Shown here: one piece after another, positions 11,754-59,596 of the stretch
Position numbering within the stretch: the first letter of the stretch is position 1
Layout: every line of letters begins with the position of its first letter
Assembly: GCA_964399495.1 (NCBI GenBank)
Contig: CAYNQX010000011.1
Coordinates: 16,589 to 80,588, forward strand
Length of the DNA: 64,000 nucleotides
Source: an uncultured bacterium
GTDB taxonomy: Bacteria; Krumholzibacteriota; Krumholzibacteriia; JACNKJ01
Direction: 5' to 3'
Made by a program: the position numbers and the translations under genes
Notes under the pieces: generated by a model
Databases searched by the model: none
The model's input: the letters and a program-made list of their open reading frames with translations, nothing else
What the model was told of the DNA's origin: nothing

Positions 11754-11913
11754 ACTCCCGCAACTTGTTTATGGCTGAATTCTTTCATTATCCTATGTCA
11801 ATTATGAACCCATGACAAGGACATTTCCAGGCTTGCACCGCCCTGGAGACGCCGTTAATCTGTCGGTTCCACCCCCATCCAACCCCCTCACCACCCAACT
11901 CTGGAGTCCAAGT

Positions 11914-13002
11914 ATGTCCGCGGATCCCATCGCCATCAAATCGATTCACCACGTCGAGATCTGGGCCGGAAACGCCAAACAGGCCGCCTATTTCTACCGC
12001 AAGGCCTTCGGATTCTCCCAGCTCGCCTACGCCGGCCTCGAGACCGGTCTCGAGGACCGAACCTCCTACTGCCTCGCCGAGAACAAGGTCCGGCTGGTCG
12101 TGAGCAGCCCTCTCGCCTCCGGCGGCCCGATGGGCAAGTTCCTCGACCAGCACGGCGACGGCGTGCGCGACATCGCCTTCCTGGTGGAGGACGCCGACGC
12201 GGCCTTCGCCGAGGCCGTCGCCCGCGGCGCCAAGCCCTTCAGCGAGCCCCGCGACCGCAGCGACGAGAACGGCACCGTCCGCCACGCCGCGATCCACACC
12301 TACGGCAACGTCGTCCACAGCCTCATCTCCATGAAGGACTACGAGGGCTGCTTCCTGCCCGGCTACCGTCTCCAGGAGATCCCCGAGGAGGGCTTCGGCT
12401 TCCGCGTGATCGACCACATCGTGGGCAACGTGGAAGAAGGTAAGATGGAGTACTGGCGCGAGTGGTACGAGAACGTGCTCGGCTGGCACCAGCATCTCTC
12501 CTTCGACGACAAGGACATCTCCACCGAGTTCACCGCGCTGCGCTCGAAGGTGATGAGCAACGAGAAGGGGAACATCCGCTTCCCCATCAACGAGCCGGCC
12601 AAGGGCAAGAAGAAGAGCCAGATCGAGGAGTACCTCGACTTCAACGAGGGCCCCGGCTCCCAGCACCTCGCCCTGCTCACGCCGGACATCATCAGCACGG
12701 TCACCAAGCTCCGCGCCGCGGGCGTCGAGTTCCTGGAAGTACCTCAGACCTACTACGAGTCACTGAATGACCGTGTGGGCACAATCGACGAGGACATCGC
12801 CACCCTGGCCAAGCTGGGCATTCTCGTCGACCGCGACGACCAGGGCTACCTGCTGCAGCTCTTCACCAAGCCGGTGGAGGATCGGCCGACGCTCTTCTTC
12901 GAGATCATCCAGCGCAAGGGCAGCAACAGCTTCGGCAAGGGCAACTTCCAGGCGCTGTTCGAATCGATCGAACGGGAGCAGGCCAACCGGGGCACGCTCT
13001 AG
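11914..13002 (+). CDS. hppD: 4-hydroxyphenylpyruvate dioxygenase
   Basis: Full-length HPPD signature (IHHVEIWAGNAKQAAYFY..., FFEIIQRKG..FGKGNFQALFESIEREQ). ATG 11914 with GGAG 8 nt upstream. The upstream part of the ORF-track frame from 11812 is an unlikely leader. Confidence 0.9.
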   Translation: MSADPIAIKSIHHVEIWAGNAKQAAYFYRKAFGFSQLAYAGLETGLEDRTSYCLAENKVRLVVSSPLASGGPMGKFLDQHGDGVRDIAFLVEDADAAFAEAVARGAKPFSEPRDRSDENGTVRHAAIHTYGNVVHSLISMKDYEGCFLPGYRLQEIPEEGFGFRVIDHIVGNVEEGKMEYWREWYENVLGWHQHLSFDDKDISTEFTALRSKVMSNEKGNIRFPINEPAKGKKKSQIEEYLDFNEGPGSQHLALLTPDIISTVTKLRAAGVEFLEVPQTYYESLNDRVGTIDEDIATLAKLGILVDRDDQGYLLQLFTKPVEDRPTLFFEIIQRKGSNSFGKGNFQALFESIEREQANRGTL

Positions 13003-13016
13003 AACGAGAGGGCGCC

Positions 13017-13964
13017 ATGCGTCTGTTCAACTACGAACGCGAGGGAAACCCCCGCGCCGGCCTCTGGCTGCGCGGACTCGGCCACGACCTGGCCGAGCTG
13101 CTGGGCGTGGCCGCCTTCGGCCCTCTGAGTCCGGAGAACCTGGGCGAGATTCCGGCCTGGCGCGACGCGCTCGGCGAGGATCCGGAGTCGAGGGCGGATC
13201 GGACCCGGCCGCTGGCGCCGGGCAGCTTCCGCTGGCTGCCGCCGGTGGTGCCCGCCGCGAGCTTCCGCGACTTCTACGCCTTCGAGGAGCACGTGGCCAC
13301 GGCGCGCGCGCGTCGCGGGCTCGAGGTGCCGGAGAACTGGTACCGCTTCCCCGTGTTCTACTTCTCCAATGCGAACGCGCTGTTCGGCCACGAGGCGGAG
13401 ATTCCCGCGCCGACCCACCCCGAAGGCAACGCCTGGCTCGACTACGAACTCGAAGTGGGCGCCGTGCTCGCCGAGGGCGGGCGGGATCTCGCGCCGGAGC
13501 AGGCCGAGTCGCGCATCGCGGGTTACTGCGTATTGAACGACTGGAGCGCGCGGCGGGTGCAGCGCGAGGAGATGGCCGTGGGCCTCGGCCCCGCCAAGGG
13601 CAAGGACTTCGCCACCTCGGTGGGCCCCTTCCTCGTGACCCCCGACGAGATCGCCCACCGCCGGGAGGGCAAGGGCTTCGACCTCGCCATGAGCGCCAGC
13701 GTGAACGGCGAGGAGCGCAGCCGCGGCAACTGGAAGAGCATCCACTACTCCTTCGGCGAGATGATCGCGCGGGCGAGCGACTGCGTCGACCTGAAGCCCG
13801 GCGACCTGTTCGGCAGCGGCACCGTGGGCGGCGGCTGCATCCTCGAACTGGGCCCGGACCCGAGCAACGGTCAAGCCGGAGGCTGGCTCGAGCCCGGCGA
13901 CGCCGTGGAGCTGAACGTGGAGGGACTCGGCAAGCTGCGCGGAACGCTCCGAAGCCAGGACTGA
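13017..13964 (+). CDS. fumarylacetoacetate hydrolase (FAH)-family protein, small ~315-aa type
   Basis: FAH-fold motifs (...NDWSARRVQREEMAVGLGPAKGKDF..., GDLFGSGTVGG). Confidence 0.75.
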   Translation: MRLFNYEREGNPRAGLWLRGLGHDLAELLGVAAFGPLSPENLGEIPAWRDALGEDPESRADRTRPLAPGSFRWLPPVVPAASFRDFYAFEEHVATARARRGLEVPENWYRFPVFYFSNANALFGHEAEIPAPTHPEGNAWLDYELEVGAVLAEGGRDLAPEQAESRIAGYCVLNDWSARRVQREEMAVGLGPAKGKDFATSVGPFLVTPDEIAHRREGKGFDLAMSASVNGEERSRGNWKSIHYSFGEMIARASDCVDLKPGDLFGSGTVGGGCILELGPDPSNGQAGGWLEPGDAVELNVEGLGKLRGTLRSQD

Positions 13965-14001
13965 ATCGACCCTCACCACCACGAGGCACCGGGAGAATCG
14001 A

Positions 14002-15153
14002 ATGCCGATCTACCATCGACTGGGAGAGATCCCCCGCAAAAGGCACGTCGTCTTCGAGCGCGAGGGCGGCGGCATGTACTACGAGCACCTCATGGGCAAC
14101 AAGGGCTTCACGGGGCCCGCGTCCACCATGTACCACCTGCGGCGGCCCACGCAGCTGCGCGAGGTGCGCCTGCTGAAGGAACTGAACTGGGAGGTCGATC
14201 CCGACGCGCGCCTTCGCCCCCGCCACCTGCGCCTGCATCGCCACGAGGCGGGCGGCGGGCCGGTGCTCGATCGCGTGCCCGCGCTGTTCAACGGCGACGT
14301 GGCGATATCCTTCGTCCAACCCGATCGCGTCGACGAGTTCTTCTACCGCAACGGCCAGGGCGACGAGCTGCTCTACGTGAGCGAGGGCGAGGGCGCGGTC
14401 GAGTCCACCATGGGCCGGCTGCCCTTCGGGCCGGGCGACTACGTCGTGATTCCGCGGGGAATCATCCATCGCATCGTGCCCGACGGCCCCTGCCGGATCC
14501 TCGTCGTGGAGAGCGCCGGCGCCGTCGAGACGCCTTCCCGCTACCGCAACGAGTTCGGCCAGTACCTCGAGCACAGCCCCTTCTGCGAGCGGGACATCCG
14601 CAGGCCCGCAGAACAGCGTGTGCATGATGAATCGGGCGAGTTCATCGTCGTCACCAAGATGGGAGGCGCCCTCCACGAGATGGTGATGGCCAACCACCCC
14701 TTCGACGTGGTGGGCTGGGACGGTCACTACTATCCCTGGGCCTTCAACATCCTCGACTTCGAGCCGCTGGTGGGGCGCCTGCACATGCCGCCGCCGATCC
14801 ATCAGACCTTCCAGAGCAGCGGCTTCGTCGTGTGCTCCTTCGTGCCGCGGCTCTACGACTTCCACCCCGATGCGATCCCCGCGCCCTACAACCACAGCAA
14901 CGTGATGACGGACGAGGTGATCTACTATGCTCGGGACAAGTTCATGAGTCGCAAGGGCATCGAGTTCGGCTCGGTGACCCTGCATCCGGACGGCTTCCCC
15001 CACGGCCCGCAGCCCGGCATGATCGAGAAGTCGGTGGGCGTGAAGGACACCGACGAACTGGCGGTGATGATCGACACCTTCCGGCCGCTCAAGGTCGCGA
15101 AGGCCGCGCTGGACACCGAGGACGAGGACTACGTCCGCAGCTGGCTGGAGTAG
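14002..15153 (+). CDS. hmgA: homogentisate 1,2-dioxygenase
   Basis: MPIYHRLGEIPRKRH N-terminus and overall HGD sequence. Confidence 0.9.
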   Translation: MPIYHRLGEIPRKRHVVFEREGGGMYYEHLMGNKGFTGPASTMYHLRRPTQLREVRLLKELNWEVDPDARLRPRHLRLHRHEAGGGPVLDRVPALFNGDVAISFVQPDRVDEFFYRNGQGDELLYVSEGEGAVESTMGRLPFGPGDYVVIPRGIIHRIVPDGPCRILVVESAGAVETPSRYRNEFGQYLEHSPFCERDIRRPAEQRVHDESGEFIVVTKMGGALHEMVMANHPFDVVGWDGHYYPWAFNILDFEPLVGRLHMPPPIHQTFQSSGFVVCSFVPRLYDFHPDAIPAPYNHSNVMTDEVIYYARDKFMSRKGIEFGSVTLHPDGFPHGPQPGMIEKSVGVKDTDELAVMIDTFRPLKVAKAALDTEDEDYVRSWLE

Positions 15154-19386: not shown

Positions 19387-19712
19387 GGGGTACCCTTTCC
19401 GATTTCCAGGTAAACCGTCTCCCGGGGCGGAGCGGCGCAGGGATAATCAGGCGGGGCAGGCACTATTATACAATATATCCCAAATATCGCACAACTGTCC
19501 GCTCCTCTCGACGGGCCCAACACCGAGATCCCAGAGTTCTTCAAGGATTTCAGGACCTCTTGACCTGGATCAATCACTCCTGACCACTTTGTACCTATCT
19601 TCACGTGGTCGCTGACATATCGGTGACGCGTCGATCGATCGATCCAAGGCGGCCGAGTCGACAAGGCCGCCGAGCACGGGAGTGGGATTCCCCACGCCTA
19701 CAAGGAGAATCA

Positions 19713-21158
19713 ATGAAGACCCTGACAGCTCTGCTGCTCATCTGTCTGATCGCTGCGCCGGCTCTGGCTTTCCAGTCGAACCTGCCCAGTGAGCTTTCGG
19801 AGACGAGCAAAGAGTGCCTGGAGTGTCATAAGGATGACAACCCGGCCCTCTACCAGCAGTGGGGAGACAGCAAGCACCACGGCGCCAACGTTGGCTGCTA
19901 CGAGTGCCATGCCGCCGAAAAGGGCGACAAGGACGTGCTTCGCGACGGTACCCACGACGACTTCGTGATCGCGACCATCGTGTCGCCTCTCGACTGCGGC
20001 CGCTGCCACTCCAAGGAAACGGACGAGTTCCTGAACTCGCACCACTCCAAGGCCGGACGCATCATGGGCTCCCTGGACAACCTCCTCGCCGAGGTCGTCG
20101 AGGGCAATAACGGCCTGGTCACCCCCGCCTTCCCGAACGGTATCTCCGCCGCGGCCGTCAACGGTTGCTGGCAGTGCCACGGAAGCGAGATCAAGGTGAA
20201 CAAGGACGGTACCCTGGATGCCGCGACCTGGCCGAACAGCGGCATGGGCCGCGTGAACCCGGACGGCTCCGAGGGTTCCTGCTCCGCGTGCCACAGCCGT
20301 CACAGCTTCTCCGCGGCGCTCGCGCGCCACCCCGAGAACTGCGGCAAGTGCCACATGGGTCCGGATCACCCGCAGCTCGAGGTGTACAACGAGTCCAAGC
20401 ACGGCATCGCGTTCCGTGCGAACATCGACAAGATGAACCTGAACTCCTCCAAGTGGGTTGTCGGCGAGGACTACAGCGCCGCCCCCACCTGCGCCACCTG
20501 CCACATGAGCGCCACGGCGAACCAGGACATCACGCACAACATCGGTCTGCGCGTGAAGTGGAACAACCGTCCGCCGCGTTCCAAGCTGTCGCACACGACG
20601 GACAAGAAGTGGAACCTGGATTCCCAGAAGATCCACGCCGACACCCGTCGTGAGAACATGATGGACGTCTGCAACAACTGCCACCAGGAGCAGTTCTCCC
20701 GGAACTTCTTCATCCAGTACGAGGGCATCCTCGACCTGTACGATCAGAAGTACGCGGAGCCCGGCCTGAGACTCTACAAGGCCGCCACCGCCGTGCTGAA
20801 GACGAACCCCGACTACGTCAAGTTCGTCCATCCGATCGACTGGACCTGGTTCGAGCTGTGGCACCACGAGGGTCGCCGCGTGCGTCACGCCGCCGCCATG
20901 CAGGCGCCGGACTACACGCACTGGCACGGCACCTACGATCTCGCCAAGCACTGGATGACCAAGTACGTGCCCGAGATCAACGACATCATTCACGAGTACA
21001 AGAAGAGCGCGCCCAAGGAAGTCGCCGTTCTCGAGCAGACTCTGAAGGATGTCCAGAACACGGACAACTGGAAGTGGTCCATCAACAAGGAGGACCCGGC
21101 GATCAAGAAGGCGCGTCAGAAGCGTCAGGAGGAGTTCCGCAGCCGCTACAGCAAGTAG
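19713..21158 (+). CDS. octahaem c-type cytochrome, hydroxylamine oxidoreductase (HAO/HDH)-family-like
   Basis: Signal peptide plus 8 CXXCH motifs (CLECH, CYECH, CGRCH, CWQCH, CSACH, CGKCH, CATCH, CNNCH) in ~480 aa. The C-terminal region has W/H/Y-rich THWHGTYDLAKHW. AGGAGA before ATG 19713. The ORF-track start at 19605 is unlikely. Confidence 0.7.
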   Translation: MKTLTALLLICLIAAPALAFQSNLPSELSETSKECLECHKDDNPALYQQWGDSKHHGANVGCYECHAAEKGDKDVLRDGTHDDFVIATIVSPLDCGRCHSKETDEFLNSHHSKAGRIMGSLDNLLAEVVEGNNGLVTPAFPNGISAAAVNGCWQCHGSEIKVNKDGTLDAATWPNSGMGRVNPDGSEGSCSACHSRHSFSAALARHPENCGKCHMGPDHPQLEVYNESKHGIAFRANIDKMNLNSSKWVVGEDYSAAPTCATCHMSATANQDITHNIGLRVKWNNRPPRSKLSHTTDKKWNLDSQKIHADTRRENMMDVCNNCHQEQFSRNFFIQYEGILDLYDQKYAEPGLRLYKAATAVLKTNPDYVKFVHPIDWTWFELWHHEGRRVRHAAAMQAPDYTHWHGTYDLAKHWMTKYVPEINDIIHEYKKSAPKEVAVLEQTLKDVQNTDNWKWSINKEDPAIKKARQKRQEEFRSRYSK

Positions 21159-21187: not shown

Positions 21188-21221
21188 GAGGGGCGGGGTT
21201 CATCCCCGCCCCTTTTCATTT
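21188..21221 (+). terminator. rho-independent terminator after the octahaem cytochrome gene
   Basis: GGGGCGGGGttcatCCCCGCCCCttttcattt. Confidence 0.65.
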
Positions 21222-21322: not shown

Positions 21323-21835
21323 ATGAGAAGCCTACGCAACCTTTGCATCTACACCGCATTGATCCTCATCGCCACCGCCCCTGTAGCCGCCGCCCTCCCC
21401 GCTTCCGGTTCCATCCTGGTCGTCGAGGCCACCCTCATCGAGGGCCTGGCCGACTATCACGGCGAAGTCGTGGAGTCCGAAACCGAGACCATCGCGCGCG
21501 ACGGCAACCGCTACGTGCTCGAGGGCTCCGGCCTGAGCTCCCTGGATGGGCTCCAGGCCCTCTTCCTGGTGGACCACCGCCGCGACACGCAGAAGTCCGC
21601 CGGCCTCCAGCGCGAGCGCTGGCAGGAGGTGCTCCCCGTGAGCGAGGGCTTCTTCGAGCTGAACGTGCTCCCGGACGAGCCCTTCTGGTACCAGATCGCC
21701 GACGTGAACGGCGAGCTGGGCCTCTTCGGTCAGGGTAACCTGCTCCGCTCCGAGGGCGGCGAGGGCGAGCCCTTCCAGGTGTGGCGCATCGACGGATTGA
21801 AGCTCGTGGACCGCTCCGACATCGCGCTGCGCTGA
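21323..21835 (+). CDS. hypothetical secreted protein
   Basis: Signal MRSLRNLCIYTALILIATAPVAAA. No recognisable domain. High GC3 coding bias. Confidence 0.45.
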   Translation: MRSLRNLCIYTALILIATAPVAAALPASGSILVVEATLIEGLADYHGEVVESETETIARDGNRYVLEGSGLSSLDGLQALFLVDHRRDTQKSAGLQRERWQEVLPVSEGFFELNVLPDEPFWYQIADVNGELGLFGQGNLLRSEGGEGEPFQVWRIDGLKLVDRSDIALR

Positions 21836-21906: not shown

Positions 21907-22680
21907 ATGGCCGCGGGCATCATCTTCGACATCAAGCGCTTCTCGATCCACGACGGGCCGGGCATCCGCACCACCGTGTTCATGAAGGGCTGTCCCCTGG
22001 ACTGCTGGTGGTGCCACAATCCGGAGAGCCGCCGGGCCGAGCCGGCCGTGCTGGCGGGCGAGGAGGTCGGACGGCGCATCGAGGTGGCCGAACTCCTGGC
22101 CGAGATCGAGAAGGACCAGCCCTTCCACGACGAATCCGGCGGCGGCGTCACCTTTTCCGGCGGCGAGCCCCTTGCTCAACCCGAGTTCCTGCTGGCGGCC
22201 CTCGCCGCCTGTGGAGAGCGGGAGATCCATCGCGCCGTGGACAGCACGGGCCACGCGCCCGCCTATCTGCTGCGCCGCGTGGCAGGGGAGACCGAGCTCT
22301 TCCTCTACGACCTGAAGCACATGGACCCCCAGCGCCATCTGCGCTATACGGGTCGGGAGCTCGCGCCGATCCTGACGAACCTGCGCCTGCTGGCGGAGCT
22401 CGGAAGGCCGGTCGAGATCCGGATACCCGTGATCCCCGGCGTGAACGACGACCCGGACAACCTCGACGCCGCGGGGCGATTCGCGGCCGAGCTCGACAAC
22501 GTGACGGGGCTGGTGCTGCTGCCCTTCCATGCGATGGCCATGCACAAGTACGAGCGCTTCGGCCTGGAGCTGCGCCTGCCCGAGACCCAGGAGCCCGAGC
22601 CCGACGCGCTGCGCACCGCCGCCGACCGGCTCGCCGCCCTGGGCCTGAACGTGAGGATCGGAGGATTCGATGATGAATGA
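21907..22680 (+). CDS. glycyl-radical enzyme activating protein (radical SAM, PflA family)
   Basis: CPLDCWWCHN (CX3CX2C) cluster motif, FSGGEPL, and the DGPGIRTTVF N-terminus typical of GRE activases. Overlaps the GRE gene by 11 nt. Confidence 0.85.
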   Translation: MAAGIIFDIKRFSIHDGPGIRTTVFMKGCPLDCWWCHNPESRRAEPAVLAGEEVGRRIEVAELLAEIEKDQPFHDESGGGVTFSGGEPLAQPEFLLAALAACGEREIHRAVDSTGHAPAYLLRRVAGETELFLYDLKHMDPQRHLRYTGRELAPILTNLRLLAELGRPVEIRIPVIPGVNDDPDNLDAAGRFAAELDNVTGLVLLPFHAMAMHKYERFGLELRLPETQEPEPDALRTAADRLAALGLNVRIGGFDDE

Positions 22681-25030
22681 GCGCGTATCCCGCCTGCGCA
22701 CCGAGAGCTTCGAGGCCGCGGTGAGCTTCTCGGCCGAGCGCGCCGAGCTTATCACCGACTTCTATCACGAGCAGCACGGCAAGGCCTCGGTGCCGGTCAC
22801 CCGCGCGCGCGCCTTCGCGCATCTGTGTCGGCACAAGAGCCTCTGGCTCGGCGAGGGCGAGCTGATCGTCGGCGAGCGCGGGCCGCGCCCCAAGGCCGTG
22901 CCCAGCTACCCGGAGATCACCTGCCACACGGTCGAGGATCTCGAGATCCTGCGCAGCCGGCCCATGACGCCCTATTCAGTGAGCGATGGCGATATCGCCA
23001 TCTACCGCGAGAAGGTGATTCCCTACTGGCGGGAGCGCTGCCTCAGGGAGCGGATCTTCGAGGGGCTGGCATCCGAATGGCGCGGCGCGTATGGCGCCGG
23101 CGTCTTCACCGAGTTCATGGAACAACGCGCGCCGGGACACACCACCCTGGACGGCAAGCTCTACGAGCGGGGCCTCCTCGATCTGCAGGCCGACATCGAT
23201 GAAACCCTGGCCGATCTCGATTTCCACGCCGACCCGGAAGCCTCGGCGAAGCGCGAACAGCTCCACGCCATGCGGATCGCCGCCGACGGCGCCCTCGAGT
23301 TCGCACATCGCCACGCGGCGCTGGCCGAGGAGCGAGCCGCGGCCTGTTCCGACCCGGAGCGCCGAGCCGAGCTCGAGCGCATCGCGGCCATCTGCCGCCA
23401 CGTGCCCGCCCACGCGCCGCGCGACTTCCACGAGGCGCTGCAGGCCTACTGGTTCGTCCACCTGGGCACCATCACCGAGCTCAACGGCTGGGACGCCATG
23501 AATCCCGGGCACCTCGACCGTCACCTGCTCCCCTTCTACGAGCGCGGCCTCGCCGACGGCACGCTCACGCGCGAGCGCGCGAAGGAGCTGCTGGCCTGCT
23601 TCTGGATCAAGTTCAACAACCAGCCCGCGCCGCCGAAGGTGGGCGTGACGGCGGCCGAGAGCGGCACCTACAACGACTTCACCAACATCAACCTCGGCGG
23701 CCTGCTGGCCGACGGCGCAGACGGCGTGAGCGAGCTCTCCTATCTGATCCTCGAGGTGGTCGACGAGATCCACCTGCTGCAACCCCAGTGCAACCTGCAG
23801 CTCAGCCGCAAGAATCCGGATCGCTTCCTCAAGGCCGCGTGCCGGGTGGTCCGCAAGGGCTACGGCTATCCGTCGATCTTCAACGCCGACGGCGTCGTCG
23901 AGCAGATGGTGCGCGTGGGCAAGCGGATCGAGGACGCCCGCGACGGCGGCAGCAGCGGCTGCGTGGAGACGGGCGCCTTCGGCAAGGAGGCCTACATCCT
24001 CACCGGCTACTTCAACACGCCGAAGGTGCTGGAGATCGCGATGCACGATGGTGTCGACCCGCGCGGCGGCGAGCGGGTGGGGCCGGCCACCGGCGAGACG
24101 CGCGACTTCGAGAACTTCGACGCGCTCTACGCCGCCTTCGAGACCCAGCTCCAGCACTTCGTCGACATCAAGCTGGCGGGCAACCAGGTGATCGAGCGGC
24201 TCTACGCCGAGTCGATGCCCGCGCCCTTCCTGTCGCTCTACATCGACGACTGCATCGCGAAGGGCCGCGACTACAACGCCGGCGGCGCCCGCTACAACAC
24301 CAGCTACGTGCAGGGCGTGGGCATCGGCAGCATCACCGACGCGCTCTCGGCCATCCGCACCCACGTGTTCGAGGGCGACCTGACGATGGACGAGCTGCTG
24401 AACGCCCTCGCCGCCGACTTCGGGAACGACGAGCCCCTGCGCCGCCGCCTCGCCGACGAGACGCCGCGCTACGGCAATGATGACGACGCGGCCGACGCCA
24501 TCATGCGCCGCGTATTCGACACGCTGTATGGCGCCGTGGACGGCCGCCCCAACACCCGCGGCGGCGACTACCACCTGGACATGCTGCCCACCACCTGCCA
24601 CATCTACTTCGGCTCGGTCACCGGCGCCACGGCCGACGGCCGCCGCGCGGGCGCGCCGCTGTCGGAGGGGATCTCGCCCGTGCAGGGCGCGGATAGGTTG
24701 GGACCCACGGCCGTTCTCAAGAGCGCCGCCAAGATGGACCACCTGCGCACCGGCGGCACCCTGCTCAACATGAAGTTCCTTCCGCGTCTGCTCGCCGACC
24801 GCGAAGGGATCGACGGCCTCGCCCAGCTCATCCGCGGCTACTTCCGCCTGGACGGCCACCATCTGCAGTTCAACGTGGTGGACGTCGACACGCTGCGCCG
24901 CGCCCAGGAGAGGCCCGAGGAGCATCGCGATCTCATCGTGCGGGTGGCCGGTTACAGCGACTACTTCGTGGATATCGGGCGGGAGCTGCAGGACGAGATC
25001 ATCGCGCGGACGGCGCAGGAGGGGCTCTAG
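22670..25030 (+). CDS. glycyl radical enzyme, PFL2 / glycerol-dehydratase-like 1,2-eliminase subfamily (substrate unknown)
   Basis: 786 aa. Glycine-radical motif RVAGYSDYF near the C-terminus. Active-site GSSGCVETG (Cys-x-Glu as in the CutC/GDH/HypD eliminases). No small-subunit genes nearby. Confidence 0.85.
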   Translation: MMNERVSRLRTESFEAAVSFSAERAELITDFYHEQHGKASVPVTRARAFAHLCRHKSLWLGEGELIVGERGPRPKAVPSYPEITCHTVEDLEILRSRPMTPYSVSDGDIAIYREKVIPYWRERCLRERIFEGLASEWRGAYGAGVFTEFMEQRAPGHTTLDGKLYERGLLDLQADIDETLADLDFHADPEASAKREQLHAMRIAADGALEFAHRHAALAEERAAACSDPERRAELERIAAICRHVPAHAPRDFHEALQAYWFVHLGTITELNGWDAMNPGHLDRHLLPFYERGLADGTLTRERAKELLACFWIKFNNQPAPPKVGVTAAESGTYNDFTNINLGGLLADGADGVSELSYLILEVVDEIHLLQPQCNLQLSRKNPDRFLKAACRVVRKGYGYPSIFNADGVVEQMVRVGKRIEDARDGGSSGCVETGAFGKEAYILTGYFNTPKVLEIAMHDGVDPRGGERVGPATGETRDFENFDALYAAFETQLQHFVDIKLAGNQVIERLYAESMPAPFLSLYIDDCIAKGRDYNAGGARYNTSYVQGVGIGSITDALSAIRTHVFEGDLTMDELLNALAADFGNDEPLRRRLADETPRYGNDDDAADAIMRRVFDTLYGAVDGRPNTRGGDYHLDMLPTTCHIYFGSVTGATADGRRAGAPLSEGISPVQGADRLGPTAVLKSAAKMDHLRTGGTLLNMKFLPRLLADREGIDGLAQLIRGYFRLDGHHLQFNVVDVDTLRRAQERPEEHRDLIVRVAGYSDYFVDIGRELQDEIIARTAQEGL

Positions 25031-38465: not shown

Positions 38466-39371
38466 TCACTTGCCGACTCCCGCTGCTCGCACCACCGGAA
38501 CAGACTCCCGACGTCGAGCCTCACGCTTGTAGCGCCAGGCCCAGCGGATCGCATCCCGTTCGCACTCCCGGACGCACTCACCGCAAGCGAAGCAATCCGA
38601 GGTCTGGCGTCCCGCGCCGACCTTCTGACTGAGCGAGGCGCAGGGCGTCGCCGTCAGGCAGTCGCCGCAGCGATTGCAAGTGGCGGTCACCCCCAACTCG
38701 AGCAGGCTGATCCGTTCGAAGGCCCACGCCAGCAGACCCACCGGGCACACGGCGGAGCAGAAGGGGCGATGTACGATGAAGCTCGTAAAAACGAGGAACG
38801 CGAAGGGCAGCCACACCGCAGTCGAGTTCCAGCCCCGCCAGTCGAATGCTTTCGCCGGATCGATCCAGTCGTAGAGGATCACCGACTTCCATGCGAGCAG
38901 CCCCCCGAACACGATGAGTAGACCGATCCGCAGAGCGACCCCGACCCTCATCGGAATCACTCGAAGGCGGCGGCGGCGGAGCTTGCCGGTCAACTCCTGC
39001 ACGAAACCCACAGGACACACCCAGCCGCAGAAGAGACGCCCACCGGCCAGCGTCGAGATCATGATGACGGCCAGGAGAACGAACATGCCGATGGCGGGAG
39101 CGCCGTAATAGATCGGCAGCACGATGCTGTGGCTGAAGGCAGTGAGCGGTAAGGGATTCAGGTCGATGTAATACACGATTCGCGGGAAGAGGGACGCCAG
39201 GACTCCACCGAGCAGGAGGAAGGCGACAACTCGATGGACCACCGGTAGCCATCGCCGACGACGGAAGAGGCTGAGATGCCCCACCCCTGCAAGGAGAAGC
39301 AGGAAGACGGTGACATAGGTCCAACTGTGAACCTGCTCGTAGAAGTTCTTCCAGAGAACGTCGAGCATCAT
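38466..39371 (-). CDS. membrane-bound 4Fe-4S polyferredoxin, NapH/MauN/NosR-C-like
   Basis: Several TM helices. Two CxxCP motifs on the cytoplasmic side (CGWVCPVG, CSAVCPVG) plus ferredoxin-type CNRCGDC...CASL and CFACGECVREC. Confidence 0.65.
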   Translation of the reverse strand: MMLDVLWKNFYEQVHSWTYVTVFLLLLAGVGHLSLFRRRRWLPVVHRVVAFLLLGGVLASLFPRIVYYIDLNPLPLTAFSHSIVLPIYYGAPAIGMFVLLAVIMISTLAGGRLFCGWVCPVGFVQELTGKLRRRRLRVIPMRVGVALRIGLLIVFGGLLAWKSVILYDWIDPAKAFDWRGWNSTAVWLPFAFLVFTSFIVHRPFCSAVCPVGLLAWAFERISLLELGVTATCNRCGDCLTATPCASLSQKVGAGRQTSDCFACGECVRECERDAIRWAWRYKREARRRESVPVVRAAGVGK

Positions 39372-39446: not shown

Positions 39447-42400
39447 TTAATTCGCGATCTCCCGCAGCCGCGTCAACACCGCGGCGCGGTCGGGCCGCGC
39501 CAGGAAACGCTCGCGCTCGTGGCCCTCGGGGAAGTGCAGGGAGAGGTCGCGCAGGACCTCGAGGGCGAGGCGGAGTTCCGCGGCGGCGCTCTCGGGATCG
39601 CCCGCGGCGAGGGCGAGTTCCGCGGCCTCGCGGTGAACCACCCATCGTTCCTCGGGCATCTCCAGTCTCATGCCGTGCTCGAGGGACTGCTCCAGGGAAA
39701 GAGCCGCGCCCTTGAGTTCTCCGAGAGTCCGCAGGCGACGGCCTTCCAGTCGCCAGGCCATCGGTAGGTAGCGGGGATCGCCTATCTCCTCCGCATAGTC
39801 GATCACCTCGGCAATCCACTCCCCGTCTCGCTCATCGCCGGGTGCAATGTCGATCCGGTTCAACATGGCCCACTTCACTCGCCGACCTGCATCCAGCTTT
39901 CTGAAGCGCGCAAGCGAGCTGTCCATCAGCTCGACCGCGGCGTCTCGAGATGATTCGATGTGATATCCGTAGGCGAGCAGCTGTTCGACCATCGCGTGCT
40001 CGAATTCGAGATCGAGTTCCGTGATCACGGGCAGACACGCCGCCAGGAGTTCACGCGCGCCCTCCAGATCTCCGAACAGGTGGGCACAGATGGCCAGGTC
40101 CCTCCGGATGCTCACTGCAAGTTCCGGATCGTCGGCGCCTTCCAGTTGAGCACGGAGATCCGATTCGACCTCCCGCATCCGACGATAGTCCCCGAGTAGA
40201 CTGAGAACGTGTCGAAGATTCGCGTTCAACGTATTGAGCCGGTAGGTCTCCCCCTTGAGGCGCGCGGCTTCGATGGCCTTGCGGTTGGCCTGTTCGGCTA
40301 ACCGGAGTTCACCTCGATTGACATGGACCAGGGCCTCCAGCATCACGATGCGCATATCGAGATCGGGAGTCTGACCTCGCGCGGCGAGCTCCCTCATCTC
40401 CAGAAGCAGGGCATCCAGATCGCGCATCTCCTCGGGAATCCCCGCGTTGATGATCCGCTCGGACAAGAAGATGAGCAGATCCAGGCGCATACGCTCAGGG
40501 CCATCCTCATCGCGCAGACCGTTCAGGGCCAGATGGCCGTGACGGATGCCCGCCGCTCGATCCCCTCGTTGCGATGCCAGCGTTCCCTCGGCCATGTGAA
40601 GCACCCACAATCCGGGCCTGCCTGCGAACTTCTCTCGATATCCATCGGCAAGGGACTCCGCCCGCTGGTAGTCGCCGTGGACGGCAAGGACGATGATCTC
40701 CCTCGCCGCCACCTGGATCTCTAGCATCGTTCCCCGGTACTCGGTCTCGCGAGCCTCCTTCCAGCGAAGCAAGAGCTCGTGGGCCAGACGGATCGATTGG
40801 GATGCAGCGAGGCGATAAACGAGAAGCCGACTCACTTCTCCGCTGATCTCAAGCTCTAGGTCGGCCTCAATCTCCCAAAACAAGCTTGTCGCCGTGTCAA
40901 AGTCCTCGTCCAGGAGCGCGCGTTGATGCTCCATCAATGTGAGCAGAACACGCAACCGCCCTGCGATGGAGAACTCTTCCGAGACGACCCGCAGGCGCGC
41001 CAGTGCGGACTCGGACGACCCTCTCGCGAGAGCGAGTATGGAGGACTGGGGCAGTTGAAGTATCCAGTCGAGCGTGGACGCGCGAATCGCCAGTTCGATG
41101 AGTCGCGCCCAACGCCCGGGCTCTTCCCCGGCCATTCGCCATAGCTCTTCGAGAAGGCCTTCCGGCGGCCTTGGAAAGGTCCCGGCGTACGCCGGAGATC
41201 CCGACTCGACATGGACCTTCCCAGAGGAATCCTGGCGAGCGAGCCCCAGCGCTTCGAATCGCTCCAGGGCGGTGCCGACGTCGAGATCCTCGAACCACGG
41301 ATCGAGAGAGGAAACATCGAGGAGGGAGTTCGCCAGGCCGCAAGCTCCGAGCAACTGGTTCTCCTCCGGGTGTAGCTGCGTCGGCGCGCCGGCGTCCTCC
41401 CTTTGCCAGATCTCGTCAAACTGTTCCTCCGAGATGCTCAGCACAGCCACGCCGTCCATATCCACCAGCAGCCGTCTCTCGAACGCGAACCGGAGTATCC
41501 GTTCGAGCTCCCGGGGGTCGCGCTCGGACAGCTCGTCGAAGAGCCGGAACATCCGATCACCGAGCATCAGATCGTCACAAGAACCGGATCGCAGAAGCTT
41601 CTCCACCCATCGCCGTAATGAACGGCGATCATGGATGTCCGCGGGCGGAGGTGGCGCGGGCTTGACGAGGAAGATGGATCGGGGCATCCGGTTCAGGCCG
41701 AAGCGTTCGCGCAACGCATCCATCCAGATCGTCATCGACCGCCATTCTCCTTCGGCCCTGAGGGTCTTCCCGAAGAAGAGATCCAAGTCGCCCGGCAGGT
41801 CGGGGCGGAACCTGCTCAAGCCCAGCAGGTCTCCCTCCTGGATCGACTTGAGCAGGGCCTCCCCCTGCGCGGCGCGCCAGGGAAGGGCACCAGCGAGAAC
41901 CTCGAACACGAGAACGGCCAAGGCGTGGAGATCATCACGCCAATCTAGCGCGGCACCGCCCAGCCTGCGGGGAGAGAGGTAGGCCGGCGTGCCTCCCTGC
42001 GCGACTTTACCTAGGGGTACGGCTAAACCGAGATCACCCAAGATCAGCGGATTGGAATCCGGCCGTCCGACGAGCAGATTTGCGGCCTTGAGATCGGCGT
42101 GGCCAAAGCCTGCGTCGTGAAGCAGATCCAGCGCATCGGCCACCAGCGCCATGGCATCGAGCAGTTCCCGATCTCCCGGCTTCCAGTCCTGAAGCGTCGT
42201 GCCCTCCAGGAGCGGAAAGAGCAACCAGTGCCGCCCTTCACCGTTGGTGCCGGAATCGACGACCTGAAGAAGGGCCGGATGGGTCCAACGTCGGGAAAGC
42301 TCCCCTTCCCTTTCGAGGAGTGGATCGATCTCCGGCCCCCGACTCAGCTTGAGCGCGGCCGGTTCACCGTTGCGATCGCGAGACTCGAAGACCCGGGCGC

Positions 42401-42458
42401 TGCTGCCCTCGCCCAGAAGGCGAATTCGCGGCGGTTCGAAGATTTTGGAATCAGTCAT
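39447..42458 (-). CDS. Ser/Thr protein kinase with a very large C-terminal TPR/helical-repeat region
   Basis: Kinase subdomains: GEGSSARV, AALK, catalytic HADLKAANLL, DLG, TPAYLSPR. About 700 aa of helical repeats follow. ATG 42458 with GGAG upstream. The TTG start at 42497 lies inside a terminator T-run and is rejected. Confidence 0.75.
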   Translation of the reverse strand: MTDSKIFEPPRIRLLGEGSSARVFESRDRNGEPAALKLSRGPEIDPLLEREGELSRRWTHPALLQVVDSGTNGEGRHWLLFPLLEGTTLQDWKPGDRELLDAMALVADALDLLHDAGFGHADLKAANLLVGRPDSNPLILGDLGLAVPLGKVAQGGTPAYLSPRRLGGAALDWRDDLHALAVLVFEVLAGALPWRAAQGEALLKSIQEGDLLGLSRFRPDLPGDLDLFFGKTLRAEGEWRSMTIWMDALRERFGLNRMPRSIFLVKPAPPPPADIHDRRSLRRWVEKLLRSGSCDDLMLGDRMFRLFDELSERDPRELERILRFAFERRLLVDMDGVAVLSISEEQFDEIWQREDAGAPTQLHPEENQLLGACGLANSLLDVSSLDPWFEDLDVGTALERFEALGLARQDSSGKVHVESGSPAYAGTFPRPPEGLLEELWRMAGEEPGRWARLIELAIRASTLDWILQLPQSSILALARGSSESALARLRVVSEEFSIAGRLRVLLTLMEHQRALLDEDFDTATSLFWEIEADLELEISGEVSRLLVYRLAASQSIRLAHELLLRWKEARETEYRGTMLEIQVAAREIIVLAVHGDYQRAESLADGYREKFAGRPGLWVLHMAEGTLASQRGDRAAGIRHGHLALNGLRDEDGPERMRLDLLIFLSERIINAGIPEEMRDLDALLLEMRELAARGQTPDLDMRIVMLEALVHVNRGELRLAEQANRKAIEAARLKGETYRLNTLNANLRHVLSLLGDYRRMREVESDLRAQLEGADDPELAVSIRRDLAICAHLFGDLEGARELLAACLPVITELDLEFEHAMVEQLLAYGYHIESSRDAAVELMDSSLARFRKLDAGRRVKWAMLNRIDIAPGDERDGEWIAEVIDYAEEIGDPRYLPMAWRLEGRRLRTLGELKGAALSLEQSLEHGMRLEMPEERWVVHREAAELALAAGDPESAAAELRLALEVLRDLSLHFPEGHERERFLARPDRAAVLTRLREIAN

Positions 42459-42495
42459 CGGCAGCTCCGGGGGGAAGGACCCCGAAAGCCTAGGC

Positions 42496-42527
42496 AAAAA
42501 AAACGGGCCCCGTCAAGACGGGGCCCT
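42496..42527 (-). terminator. rho-independent terminator for the small secreted-protein gene (minus strand)
   Basis: The minus strand reads GGGCCCCGtcttgaCGGGGCCC followed by GTTTTTTTT. Confidence 0.55.
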
Positions 42528-42714: not shown

Positions 42715-43230
42715 CGCTGCCACTCCTTTGGGTTTGTAACGAGTTCGCCTGGGTCATTGCAGGGCGGGTTCCCGTGCCAGGGAAGCCGCGCGGGGCGGTG
42801 GACCGGGGAACTGGCCGGCATGTGGCAGGATGCGCGAATTCCTCCTTTCCCCTTTGGTGGCAACGAGTTGACGACTGCAAATCTGCATTGCGCGGCCGGA
42901 GATTTCGGTGGGAATCGCTGGGGTGGGAGCCGGCGGGGCGAGGAGCACCCGAGAAGGCGGGGCAATTCTCCCAGCCTCCGAAGCCCTCGCCCGGAATCGC
43001 GGGACATCGAAGGGAGGGCCCCGAGACGACACGCCGCCGAAAGGCCGCGGGGCGATTCGCCCGCTCGGGGTGAAATCACCCAGCCGTCTGCGCGAAGAGG
43101 GCTCGAAGGGGAAAGCTGCGGGCCGTCGCGGCGCGTCGTGTCCCATTTCCGGCTGGGGCGGCGACCGTTCTCCGTGCTAGCTTCGCCCGGGATGGTCGCG
43201 CGGAGACAGGCCTTTCGGGAAGGAGCCGCC

Positions 43231-43782
43231 ATGGACGCGATGCGAGGTAGTGATCTGCTGGCCCTCGTCCGATGGACCCTCGAGCGCTGGTGCGCCGGCG
43301 AACCGTGGGCGGAAGGCGGTCCCGGCCTGCCGGACGAGAAGGACGGCCCCGTGGACGGCCTCTTCGTCACCCTGAAGCAGGGGCCGGCGCTGCGGGGCTG
43401 CATCGGCACCGTCAGCCGTCAGGATTCCCTCGACGCCAGCCTGCGCGAGATGGCCGTGCAGGCGGCCGGCAGCGATCCGCGCTTCCCACCGGTCGAGGCC
43501 GAGGAGCTGCCCGGGCTCACCCTGTCCCTGAGCATTCTCTCGCCGCCGGAGCCGGTGAGCGACCCGGAGTCCATCGAGATCGGACGGGACGGTCTGATCC
43601 TGGAACAGGGCAACCGACGCGGGCTACTCCTGCCGGAGGTGCCGGTGGAGGTGGGATGGGACAGGGAGCGCTTCCTGGAGGAGCTCTGCCGCAAGGCCTT
43701 CCTGCCGCCGGGCGCGTGGCGGGATCCCGCCAGCACCCTTCAGCGCTTCACGAGCGAGCAGTTCAGCGAACGCGAGGATTGA
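43231..43782 (+). CDS. AMMECR1-domain protein
   Basis: ...FVTLKQGPALRGCIGT... is the AMMECR1 signature. GGGAAGGAG SD before ATG 43231. The upstream part of the ORF-track frame is rejected. Confidence 0.8.
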   Translation: MDAMRGSDLLALVRWTLERWCAGEPWAEGGPGLPDEKDGPVDGLFVTLKQGPALRGCIGTVSRQDSLDASLREMAVQAAGSDPRFPPVEAEELPGLTLSLSILSPPEPVSDPESIEIGRDGLILEQGNRRGLLLPEVPVEVGWDRERFLEELCRKAFLPPGAWRDPASTLQRFTSEQFSERED

Positions 43783-45916: not shown

Positions 45917-45956
45917 TGCTTGCAATTCATAGGCTTGCACCAAGCGAGGTAAGGCC

Positions 45957-47675
45957 ATGACCCGGATCCTTCGGCATCGGCATGCGAGCCGTCTGCTCGG
46001 CGCGCTGTTGCTCCTCACGTTCGTCGCCACCGCCCCCGCGCTCGCCCGCCACAAGAAGGTGGCGTTCGTCGACGACGACTGGGAGCCCGTCGAGCGCCGT
46101 ACCTACCTTGACGACCCCGGCTACGAGAACTGGATCGTCGATGCCCTCAACGCGGAGGACATCGAGTTCGACTGGTACGAGGTGCAGCAGCAGGGCATGC
46201 CCCCGCAGCTGCCCTTACTCAGCGAGCTCGCGGACCATCAGCTCGTGCTCTGGGATTGCGGCGCCGAGACCGAGGGCGCCATGGGTTACGATGAGCGGGC
46301 GCTCATCCGCGCCTATCGCAACCTGGGCGGCAAGGTGCTGCTGTTCGGACAGGGCATCCTGAATTCGCTGGATGCGGAACTCGCGCAGAACCCCGGCGAT
46401 CCGGAGATCATCGACTTCATCGAGAACCACCTCGGCGTTTCGGAGGTGATGCTGGACATCGAGGTCGTCGAACTCCTGCCGCCCACCTACGTGCCCTACA
46501 TGAGCGGCCTCCCGCCGACGTCGCTGGACTACAGCGACCTGCCCGACACCGACCCCGCGCTCGTCGACGCCATCACGCCCATGCCCGGCGTGGACACGAT
46601 CCTCGACGGCCTGCTGCCCTTCGGCGGCTACGTCTCCGTGTCCACCACCACCTTCCTGCCCGCGCCGCTCCACTTCCAGACGGTCCTGCCCCACGCTATC
46701 GACAGCCCCCAGCTCAGGGGCCAGTGGCTGCTCGGCACCATGGAGACCGTGGGCTACCAGGGCTTCGAGCTGATGGACTTCATGCTGGGCAGCGAGTACT
46801 TCGGCGAGGCATTTGACTGCCCGCCGAGCTGGATCGGCTGGGACAGCGGCCCCAACGCCATGGGCTTCGAGGCCTGGGGCAGCAGCACCTGCTCCGAGAT
46901 CTGGTCGATGGACCTCTTCAGGAACGATGACACCTGCTTCTGGGAGCTCGGCTTCAGCCACGTGATCCAGAGCGTCAGCCACAACAGCGAGATGATCCTG
47001 ATGGAGCTGGGCACCGCCAGCAACTCCGACTTCGTGCGCATCCGGGCGCAGACCAACGCCGGCAGCCCCTACCAGTACGACCTCGAGTTCAAGGTGAAGG
47101 AGGCCGGCGCCGTCATCCAGATCGACGGCCACGAGGGCCTGAACCTCGGCGAGACCTATCGCATCATGTTCGAGCAGTCGGGTGACCCGTTGAATCTGGG
47201 TGTCTGGGTGTACGATCACCTCGGTATGGTCGTCGCCTACTTCGAGCAGCCGAACTTCAACCCGGTCTTCTCGAAGCTGAGAATGCGCACCGTCCCCCAC
47301 GGCGTCACCGTGGACGGACCCACCATCGGCTGGATCGACGACATCTTCCTCGAAGGCTGCCTCGACTTCACGCCCACCGCCAGCGACCCCGCTCCCGCGG
47401 CGCGCGCGGCGCTGAACGTGCACCCCAATCCCTTCAACCCGAGCACCGCGATCGCCGTCGACCTGCCCCGGGCCGGCGAGGTCACGGTGGCCGTCCACGA
47501 CATGTCGGGACGGCGAATCCGAACCCTGGCCGAGGGCTGGCGCGATGCCGGATCTCTCGACCTGAGCTGGGACGGAAGGGACGAGGCCGGCCGCGGCATG
47601 GGCAGCGGCGTCTACCTGGTGCGTGTCGTGGATGTCACGGGCGAGCGGGGAGCGAAGGCGGTCTTGCTGAAGTAA
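45957..47675 (+). CDS. secreted protein of unknown function with a T9SS/Por-type C-terminal sorting domain (FlgD-Ig-like)
   Basis: Signal peptide MTRILRHRHASRLLGALLLLTFVATAPALA. C-terminus ...LNVHPNPFNPSTAIAVDLPRAGEVTVAVHDMSGRRIRTL...GSGVYLVRVV...KAVLLK matches the TIGR04183-like CTD. Confidence 0.6.
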   Translation: MTRILRHRHASRLLGALLLLTFVATAPALARHKKVAFVDDDWEPVERRTYLDDPGYENWIVDALNAEDIEFDWYEVQQQGMPPQLPLLSELADHQLVLWDCGAETEGAMGYDERALIRAYRNLGGKVLLFGQGILNSLDAELAQNPGDPEIIDFIENHLGVSEVMLDIEVVELLPPTYVPYMSGLPPTSLDYSDLPDTDPALVDAITPMPGVDTILDGLLPFGGYVSVSTTTFLPAPLHFQTVLPHAIDSPQLRGQWLLGTMETVGYQGFELMDFMLGSEYFGEAFDCPPSWIGWDSGPNAMGFEAWGSSTCSEIWSMDLFRNDDTCFWELGFSHVIQSVSHNSEMILMELGTASNSDFVRIRAQTNAGSPYQYDLEFKVKEAGAVIQIDGHEGLNLGETYRIMFEQSGDPLNLGVWVYDHLGMVVAYFEQPNFNPVFSKLRMRTVPHGVTVDGPTIGWIDDIFLEGCLDFTPTASDPAPAARAALNVHPNPFNPSTAIAVDLPRAGEVTVAVHDMSGRRIRTLAEGWRDAGSLDLSWDGRDEAGRGMGSGVYLVRVVDVTGERGAKAVLLK

Positions 47676-47756: not shown

Positions 47757-47790
47757 CTAGCGAAGCGTCCGGGAGATTCTGCGGAGCTCC
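47757..47790. repeat. REP-like repeat copy overlapping the 3' end and stop codon of the kinase gene; inverted relative to the tandem copies at 51445-51524
   Basis: ctagcgaagcgtccgggagattctgcggagctcc versus the reverse complement of 51445-51484, tgcgaagcgtccgggagagtttgcggagccc (about 27/31 identical). Confidence 0.5.
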
Positions 47791-51398: not shown

Positions 51399-51444
51399 GC
51401 CACTCCTCGCGCGGAGCATAGGGGGGGAATGGCGAAAATGGCAA

Positions 51445-51546
51445 GGGCTCCGCAAACTCTCCCGGACGCTTCGCACGGACGTGAGGGCTCCGCAAACTCT
51501 CCCGGACGCTTCGCACGGACGTGAGGCGCTTTCCGGGAGAGTTTGC
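51445..51546. repeat. tandem direct repeat (2 x 40 bp, 100% identical) followed by a 15-bp inverted partial copy that can form a long hairpin; REP/BIME-like element in the 5' leader of the kinase gene
   Basis: gggctccgcaaactctcccggacgcttcgcacggacgtga occurs twice (51445-51484 and 51485-51524). tccgggagagtttgc at 51532-51546 is the reverse complement of gcaaactctcccgga. Confidence 0.6.
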
Positions 51547-51558
51547 TCCGCCGCGTGC

Positions 51559-54534: not shown

Positions 54535-54813
54535 CCCAGCCCTCGGCGTTCATGGGTTCACCAGGGAGTGCGGGCCCGGAAAATGGCCAGCACACGATCG
54601 GAACCATTCAATTATACAACATCGGGAGCCCAAACCCAATCGATGATTCGGGAGCTTGATATTAGTCACAAACATATGACGGACGGGCGATTTCGGCGAT
54701 GGAATTATCTTCGATGTTCGCGGCCGTGGGATCGGTCGGGCCCTGATGCGCGAGGCTCCTGGACAAGCGAAGCCGGTGGAGCCTACCATTCCGGCTCAAC
54801 CACCGAGGTCTTC

Positions 54814-59531: not shown

Positions 59532-59596
59532 GGGGACCTCCGGCGTGGGGGATGGGCTATCCTGTCGCGTTCAGTATATCATATCGGGTTAGTGAC

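Follow-up and report, generated by a model that had tools for sequence, protein, structure and literature searches.

A predicted trans-4-hydroxy-L-proline dehydratase and its insert-free radical-SAM activase in an uncultured Krumholzibacteriota-like bacterium

Can the substrate of a glycyl radical enzyme (GRE) be read when its gene stands in an uninformative neighbourhood? The question is raised by a two-gene locus in a 64,000-nucleotide stretch of DNA from an uncultured bacterium (contig CAYNQX010000011.1; the whole stretch is referred to here as the window), where a gene for a radical S-adenosylmethionine (radical-SAM) activase is followed directly by a GRE gene. The original prediction placed the GRE among the eliminases and held that its substrate could not be read. 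We find that sequence alone assigns the enzyme, as a predicted trans-4-hydroxy-L-proline dehydratase (HypD), and that the pair is a new member of a known family, not an orphan eliminase. Taken as a whole, the locus very probably encodes HypD with its dedicated radical-SAM activase, the latter in a natural single-domain form whose lineage deleted a ferredoxin-like insert. The features of the pair are:

21907–22680, forward strand: radical-SAM activase gene (257 aa; ATG at 21907 to TGA at 22680), predicted HypD-activating enzyme of the single-cluster (insert-free) form.
21991–22014, forward strand: CX3CX2C motif CPLDCWWC (C29/C33/C36 in the translation), ligand of the radical-SAM [4Fe-4S] cluster.
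22015–22086, forward strand: activase linker HNPESRRAEPAVLAGEEVGRRIEV, short and Cys-free, in place of a ferredoxin-like insert of about 48 residues with 8 Cys.
22670–25030, forward strand: hypD, predicted trans-4-hydroxy-L-proline dehydratase (GRE, 786 aa), matching NF043068 and 6VXC.
23957–23968, forward strand: HypD Cys loop GCVE, part of SSGCVETG, whose CXE motif supplies Cys431 for the thiyl radical as well as Glu433 (C434 and E436 of Clostridioides difficile HypD).
24458–24460, forward strand: HypD codon for Glu597 (position of C. difficile Lys601), a site that co-varies with whether the activase has lost its insert.
24941–24958, forward strand: HypD glycyl radical motif RVAGYS with Gly761 (G765 of C. 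difficile HypD).

As the original prediction stated, there is an 11-nt overlap between the activase and GRE genes (22670–22680). The ATG of the GRE gene follows a GGAGGA ribosome-binding site at a distance of 5 nt, with AGGGGAG upstream of the activase start; by this overlap and ribosome-binding site the genes are translationally coupled. Independent gene calling on the metagenome contigs of the source gave the same boundaries (257 and 786 aa), Pfam PFL-like and Gly_radical domains are recorded for the called GRE gene on public metagenome contigs, and identical activase and HypD proteins are present on nine metagenome contigs (e.g. ENA ERZ23498658 scaffold_582; BioSample SAMN10231893). E-values for the matches to GRE and activase families ranged from 0 to 1e-79, far beyond chance.

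The GRE has the features that define its superfamily, namely a C-terminal glycyl motif, a mid-protein Cys and an adjacent CX3CX2C radical-SAM activase, and its Cys loop carries the CXE signature of 1,2-eliminases (C431-V432-E433). Much of the original prediction was accurate in this respect: the 786-aa protein does have RVAGYS (G761) and Cys-Val-Glu (C431/V432/E433), its CXE loop and family scores place it in the eliminase clade beside an overlapping activase gene, and its length does fit glycerol dehydratase or HypD (789 aa in C. difficile). Against the NCBIfam equivalog NF043068 (glycl_HYPD) the GRE scored 1191.7 bits, above the cut-off of 1100, with residues 3–784 aligned to profile positions 1–783. 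The best match among all PDB sequences was C. difficile HypD (6VXC/6VXE; E 1.2e-291, 973 bits), to which the GRE is 52.2% identical over its full length (HMMER alignment, native C. difficile numbering); the next tier, at 370–487 bits, comprised glycerol dehydratase, CutC, PflD, HpzG, HpyG, HplG and IslA. The cut-offs of the models for CutC (TIGR04394, 468 versus 1050 bits), sulfopropanediol dehydratase (496 versus 1000), indoleacetate decarboxylase (367 versus 1100) and HPA decarboxylase (312 versus 1150) were all missed.

The residues of C. difficile HypD that were compared have roles in hydroxyproline (Hyp) binding and acid–base catalysis taken from the crystal-structure paper (PMC7077986), and F152, R156, H160, W277, D278, K326, S334, D339, F340, C434, V435, E436, Y450, T645 and G765 are all strictly kept in the GRE. 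D278 and D339 are reported to be invariant among HypDs but not among other eliminases, and variants of H160, D278, D339, E436, S334 and F340 of the C. difficile enzyme are reported to be inactive (PMC7077986). The two HypD residues that the original prediction had singled out for inspection, Asp278 and His160, are conserved as Asp275 and His157.

An eliminase acting on some other substrate (another hydroxyproline isomer, N-methyl-hydroxyproline, glycerol, 1,2-propanediol or something else) might be suspected, as Hyp-related context is absent from the window, HplG, HpyG and HpzG are sister GREs with other hydroxyproline derivatives as substrates (PMC13450708) and HypD-like variants with an altered Cys loop occur in metagenomes. 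We consider this improbable: the sister enzymes reach only 391–443 bits with the GRE and glycerol dehydratase 487, every equivalog other than that of HypD is missed by more than 500 bits, and all Hyp-contacting residues of 6VXE are identical, including the HypD-specific S334, D339 and D278 (PMC7077986). The GRE is assigned as HypD because it passes the equivalog, scores 973 bits to 6VXC compared with at most 487 to the others, and conserves the Hyp-binding residues. C. difficile HypD (Levin et al., 2017; Backman et al., 2020, PMC7077986) resembles the window enzyme in size, Gly and Cys loops, and substrate-binding and catalytic residues, and in having its activase gene immediately upstream; the window differs in its uncultured, environmental host of 67% GC, in having no adjacent proC, in Glu597 for K601 and in a partner activase that lacks the two-cluster insert.

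A separate HypD-like subfamily was seen in loci L163 and L182 (also L137, L138 and L169), with the Cys loop SGCVTIS instead of SGCVETG. Its members are about 59% identical, conserve the other seven Hyp-binding or catalytic residues that were checked and are partnered by 8-Cys activases. The CXE Glu that is essential in C. difficile HypD is a Thr in this subfamily, and its chemistry or substrate may differ.

From homology to the characterised C. difficile system we infer the enzymatic activity of the pair, its electron donor and the fate of its product, as follows. The activase would hold one [4Fe-4S] cluster at C29/C33/C36 and cleave S-adenosylmethionine reductively, and the resulting 5'-deoxyadenosyl radical would take a hydrogen from Gly761 of HypD. 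The glycyl radical would pass to a thiyl radical on Cys431, which would abstract the C5 hydrogen of hydroxyproline, and Asp275, His157 and Glu433 would promote loss of the 4-hydroxyl as water to give pyrroline-5-carboxylate (P5C). Housekeeping enzymes could then reduce P5C to proline or oxidize it to glutamate, and the outcome would be anaerobic use of collagen- or plant-derived hydroxyproline. Since the activase has no auxiliary-cluster insert, it presumably draws its electron directly from flavodoxin or ferredoxin, as does the PFL-activating enzyme (PFL-AE).

The unusual feature of the pair, absent from the original prediction, is this insert-free single-domain activase. The protein has the motifs DGPGIR, CPLDCWWC and GGEP and only 4 Cys in all; every radical-SAM and GRE-activating enzyme (AE) invariant column is intact, with C29, C33 and C36 invariant in a 120-sequence alignment. 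Its top NCBIfam match is T4HPD_activ_SAM (NF043069, the HypD-AE family), at 267 bits; the alignment falls into two stretches between which profile positions ~46–96 find no match. DGPGIR, CX3CX2C, GGEP and the C-terminal two-thirds align with this family and with TIGR02494, the generic GRE-activase model (PFLE/PFLC type), which the protein passes (265.5 bits, cut-off 174.35); missing are the two CX2CX2CX3C motifs of the HypD-AE family (about 48 residues, 8 Cys). Canonical HypD activases have 96 residues between CX3CX2C and GGEP, with two CX2CX2CX3CP motifs (8 Cys), compared with 48 residues and no Cys in the window activase.

In its build the activase resembles E. coli PFL-AE (3C8F/3CB8), with which it aligns end to end and shares a single-domain partial TIM barrel, a near-identical length and one [4Fe-4S] site. 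An AlphaFold2 model made with 120 homologs had a mean pLDDT of 95.4 and a pTM of 0.92; the HNPESRRAEPAVLAGEEVGRRIEV linker was modelled as a confident beta-hairpin in a compact fold with no exposed scar, and the top Foldseek matches in the PDB were PFL-AE structures (3CB8_A, TM 0.90/0.94, rmsd 1.4 Å). Identity, however, is 45–64% to HypD activases versus about 31% to PFL-AE, and the partner is an eliminase, not PFL. The activase thus combines the lack of a ferredoxin-like two-cluster insert and a PFL-AE-like build with a sequence that groups it among HypD activases, and it is predicted to descend from insert-bearing HypD activases and not from PFL-AE.

PFL carries a Cys-Cys pair on its Cys loop. 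The single-domain architecture of the activase and its top structural match to 3CB8 are what a PFL-type C-acetyltransferase with its PFL-AE would offer, and grouping with PFL is the outcome that the original prediction named as fatal to its eliminase assignment. The sequence evidence refutes such an enzyme and leaves it next to no probability: the GRE reached 120.3 bits with TIGR01255, the PFL model, whose cut-off is 994, and 96 bits with PFL 1H16, its loop is the eliminase CXE and not the PFL-type pair, and the activase falls below the PFL-AE cut-offs (140.8 versus 375 bits for PRK11145) and nests among HypD activases in trees.

Both genes of the pair are under purifying selection, with dN/dS values against the L083 ortholog (84% identical) of 0.30 for the activase and 0.19 for HypD, compared with 0.21 for atpD, and the activase is not decaying; three activase orthologs (80–100% identity) keep exactly 257 aa. 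Orthologous contigs with activases 84% and 80% identical also keep the gene order of cytochrome, 170-aa gene, 257-aa activase, HypD and ATP synthase. The idea of a recently acquired horizontal island was rejected: GC and GC3 of the pair match those of its neighbours in a window of 63–72% GC throughout, and synteny is kept at 80–84% identity, so the pair is resident and any acquisition was not recent.

Several points weigh against the pair being HypD with a working activase of its own. The activase falls below the HypD-AE equivalog cut-off (NF043069, 267 versus 425 bits), because about 48 residues with 8 Cys are missing from it, and also below the PFL-AE cut-off of TIGR02493 (193.2 versus 231.75 bits). 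The 64-kb window contains no gene for P5C reductase (proC), PutA, a Hyp or amino-acid transporter or a prolidase. We found no biochemical work on the window protein or on any insert-free HypD activase; an open-access literature search likewise returned no description of insert-free HypD activases or of HypD in Krumholzibacteriota. Finally, our view covers 64 kb of the genome, and a second, full-length activase could be encoded elsewhere.

This last point bears on whether the activase is a crippled remnant, with HypD either inactive or activated by a full-length enzyme encoded elsewhere. A ferredoxin-like domain is reported to be needed for a lasting 4-HPAD glycyl radical, as Selvaraj (2014) is cited in PMC13450708; stop codons interrupt the HypD gene of a related short-activase locus, L088; and several HypD loci have no adjacent activase. 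Such a remnant is nevertheless unlikely in our judgement, given the purifying selection on both genes and the constant 257 aa of the three orthologs, the intact catalytic motifs, the translational coupling and the compact, confident AlphaFold2 fold. Moreover, non-function is hard to square with the distribution of insert-free activases, which are the rule in a whole HypD class of the Bacteroidota and recur across three or more lineages. We therefore retain HypD with a dedicated single-domain activase as the preferred reading.

According to a 2026 review (PMC13450708) the ferredoxin-like domain is present in the great majority of GRE activases, with PFL-AE and RNR-AE as exceptions, and how the domain is built and what it does are stated there to be unknown, as is the function of its clusters in PMC11528403; activation by IbsAE and 4-Hpad-AE is possible in vitro without the auxiliary clusters (PMC10239695). 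Auxiliary Cys were absent in 65, partial in 13 and full in 64 of the 150 best representatives at 50% identity. Insert-free HypD-type activases are thus common, not rare, and the HypD-AE model is still the top-scoring one for these short forms.

Insert-free activases were found in a class of Bacteroidales/Bacteroidota metagenome-assembled genomes (MAGs), with 60-residue CX3CX2C-to-GGEP spacing and 264–271 aa, and in a clade of Planctomycetota/Verrucomicrobiota (PVC) MAGs and metagenomes, with 52-residue spacing and 254–261 aa. They adjoin bona fide HypDs in L002, L004, L007, L086 and L087 of the PVC clade, in L089 of the Bacteroidota class, where the activase is followed by a 787-aa HypD with all key residues and then by an M24 prolidase gene, and in L213. 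Both groups share with the window the domain loss, the activase-then-HypD order and a non-basic HypD residue 597; they differ from it in linker length (60 and 52 versus 48 residues) and form separate clades in neighbour-joining (NJ) trees. Forms with reduced auxiliary Cys also exist and make up a graded series of insert decay, with 7 in P0005, P0006, P0025, P0039, P0054 and P0077, 6 in P0004, the nearest relative of the window clade, and 4 in L005 and L006 (Akkermansia-labelled MAGs), L008 and L067, while the L108 and L117 activases have a Cys-free, low-complexity linker of 78–90 residues rich in Ser, Ala and Pro.

In NJ activase trees with bootstrap, built with the linker masked, the window activase clade was recovered in 100% of replicates and was joined to the PVC or Bacteroidota short clades in 0/200 and 0/100 replicates; it tended to pair with the long 6-Cys P0004 (46–60% of replicates). 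Similarly, an NJ HypD tree united the HypDs with short activases in 0/100. As the window, PVC and Bacteroidota clades are separate in these trees, the insert deletions were probably independent, and the differing deletion sizes (48, 52, 55–56 and 60 residues) agree with separate events.

Two of the short-activase loci have other features. In L088 (3111–5244) the HypD gene beside the short activase was called in four fragments with in-frame stops, which may be a pseudogene or an assembly error, and an OCD/mu-crystallin-family gene adjoins it. In L086 (1058–11862) the genes flanking the short activase and HypD are a divergent putA (Pro_dh and Aldedh domains, 1205 aa), several PIN/antitoxin pairs and a Y1 transposase-like gene; the locus looks mobile or island-like, in a setting that would link HypD to P5C oxidation.

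Does loss of the insert leave a trace in HypD itself? Fourteen candidate discriminating sites were considered, and all except 597 (and, in part, 596 and 131) also occurred in the closest HypDs with long activases, for which reason most of them are phylogenetic signal; position 596 was dropped as inconsistent (D/E/N/G/Y/A). Position 597, equivalent to Lys601 of C. difficile, is part of the motif x-x-[KR]-T-P-K/R-Y-G-N-D-D-D, immediately ahead of TPKYGNDDD, and is Glu in the window HypD. In an unbiased GTDB sample it was K, R or H in 57/57 HypDs with 7–10-Cys activases, K in all four with 4-Cys activases, and E or Q in all five with insert-free activases. Loci reached from the activase side had E in L086, L087 and L089/L090, Q in L088 and N in L213. 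When metagenome contigs were scanned predictively for E-T-P-x-Y-G-N-D-D-D, the activase was Cys-free in 42 of the 49 HypD loci where it could be classified and of the 8-Cys type in the other 7, and E597 was accordingly set aside as a predictor of the short form, being true in only 86% of cases. In all cases seen, a short activase thus appears to require a non-basic residue 597, yet such a residue does not suffice to predict one.

One hypothetical explanation is that the insert domain touches residue 597. We put forward only tentatively, as a possibility that could well prove wrong, the wider proposal that several lineages (that of the window, the PVC clade and the Bacteroidota class) independently deleted the insert, with 4-, 6- and 7-Cys intermediates still extant and the partner HypD non-basic at 597 each time, and that the co-variation reflects a contact of the GRE with the auxiliary-cluster domain, or a functional coupling of the two. 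Separately, seven HypD loci (L010, L017, L033, L035, L044, L060 and L077) have no detectable activase homolog in their flanks, which extended 8 kb upstream (4.7 kb for L017) and 2–8 kb downstream, so their activase must be encoded elsewhere; the L017 HypD has Asp at position 597.

The surroundings of the pair are bare, and the earlier claim that no microcompartment, small-subunit or transporter genes flank it was borne out. In 80 HypD loci from GTDB genomes the activase was the only near-universal neighbour, with ABC permeases (10), M24 prolidases (6), GntR regulators (5) and OCD-type reductases (4) occurring sporadically and PutA also found in some, none of them beside the window pair; a bare two-gene context is therefore normal for HypD. 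None of the genes flanking the pair in the window has a homolog in the 80 other HypD loci. A split-off ferredoxin gene replacing the missing domain was also considered and rejected: the only ferredoxin-type open reading frame in the window, and the only one with CX2CX2CX3C, encodes a membrane Fer4_5 protein 15 kb away (301 aa, 38466–39371, reverse strand, motif C-terminal), which is probably unrelated.

Upstream of the pair lie a multihaem cytochrome c gene (19605–21158) and two further features:

21188–21214, forward strand: strong terminator-like hairpin with an 11-bp stem (9 GC pairs) and a T-rich tail, between the multihaem cytochrome gene and the activase/hypD unit.
21323–21835, forward strand: conserved gene for a 170-aa secreted protein without a family match, 71 nt upstream of the activase gene.

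The 170-aa protein is acidic, has a signal-peptide-like N-terminus and matches no Pfam or NCBIfam family; its gene and the cytochrome c gene hold the same position in orthologous loci (L083/L084, JGI 3300072015). As no terminator-like site was found between the 170-aa gene and the activase gene, the former may possibly be co-transcribed with the activase and hypD. No functional link to HypD was evident for either the cytochrome c or the 170-aa gene. Sigma-54 regulators are also found near the pair, and downstream are a convergent 181-aa gene and then the F1Fo ATP synthase operon. No RNA elements or tRNAs were found in the window.

The host appears to be Krumholzibacteriota-like: its AtpD is 84–86% identical to proteins of Candidatus Krumholzibacteriota MAGs and at most 78% identical to those of any other named phylum, and FlgD-Ig domains at the C-termini of secreted proteins, together with abundant Ser/Thr kinases, fit an organism of the FCB group. 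The original prediction had also described an O2-dependent background with HPPD and HGD. HPPD (11779–13002) is genuine (TIGR01263, 443.7 bits, cut-off 277), while the supposed HGD is a distant HgmA-like cupin (TIGR01015, 66.7 versus 510.75 bits); the cluster at 11779–15153 comprises HPPD, a FAH-family hydrolase and this divergent cupin dioxygenase, and in L083 a flavin reductase gene follows. The O2-dependent background was over-read, the ATP synthase being uninformative on O2, the HGD call weak, and a multihaem cytochrome c and sigma-54 regulators being close by; the facultative lifestyle that had been deduced from it is plausible, given the O2-dependent HPPD, the multihaem cytochromes and the GRE. 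A GRE in a facultative organism is unremarkable, as with PFL in E. coli.

Elsewhere in the window are large signalling or surface protein genes (39447–42497, 45933–47675, 47757–51563, 51559–54549 and 57798–59570), encoding a pair of Ser/Thr kinases, of which one has 1268 aa and carries AAA and TPR arrays, a protein with CotH/lamin-tail domains, and two secreted proteins, one a subtilase, with FlgD-Ig-like domains at their C-termini. A 341-aa open reading frame at 42757–43782 has a C-terminal AMMECR1 domain (163 bits), a family often associated with a radical-SAM/Memo system.

HypD is already known as a widespread enzyme of anaerobic hydroxyproline catabolism, and what is new here is its extension to an uncultured Krumholzibacteriota-like lineage. 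The locus shows that sequence can reveal the substrate of such orphan GRE pairs, and that the NCBIfam HypD-AE model under-calls insert-free activases. Relatives with 8, 7, 6, 4 and 0 auxiliary Cys, all with a partner of the same enzyme family, form a natural series for tests of what the domain does, with electron delivery, docking, radical persistence, and O2 and iron economy as candidate roles. The coupling to residue 597 would, if true, be the first sequence handle on the role of the auxiliary-cluster domain; together, the insert-free activase and the co-variation at residue 597 offer a modest but concrete handle on that question.

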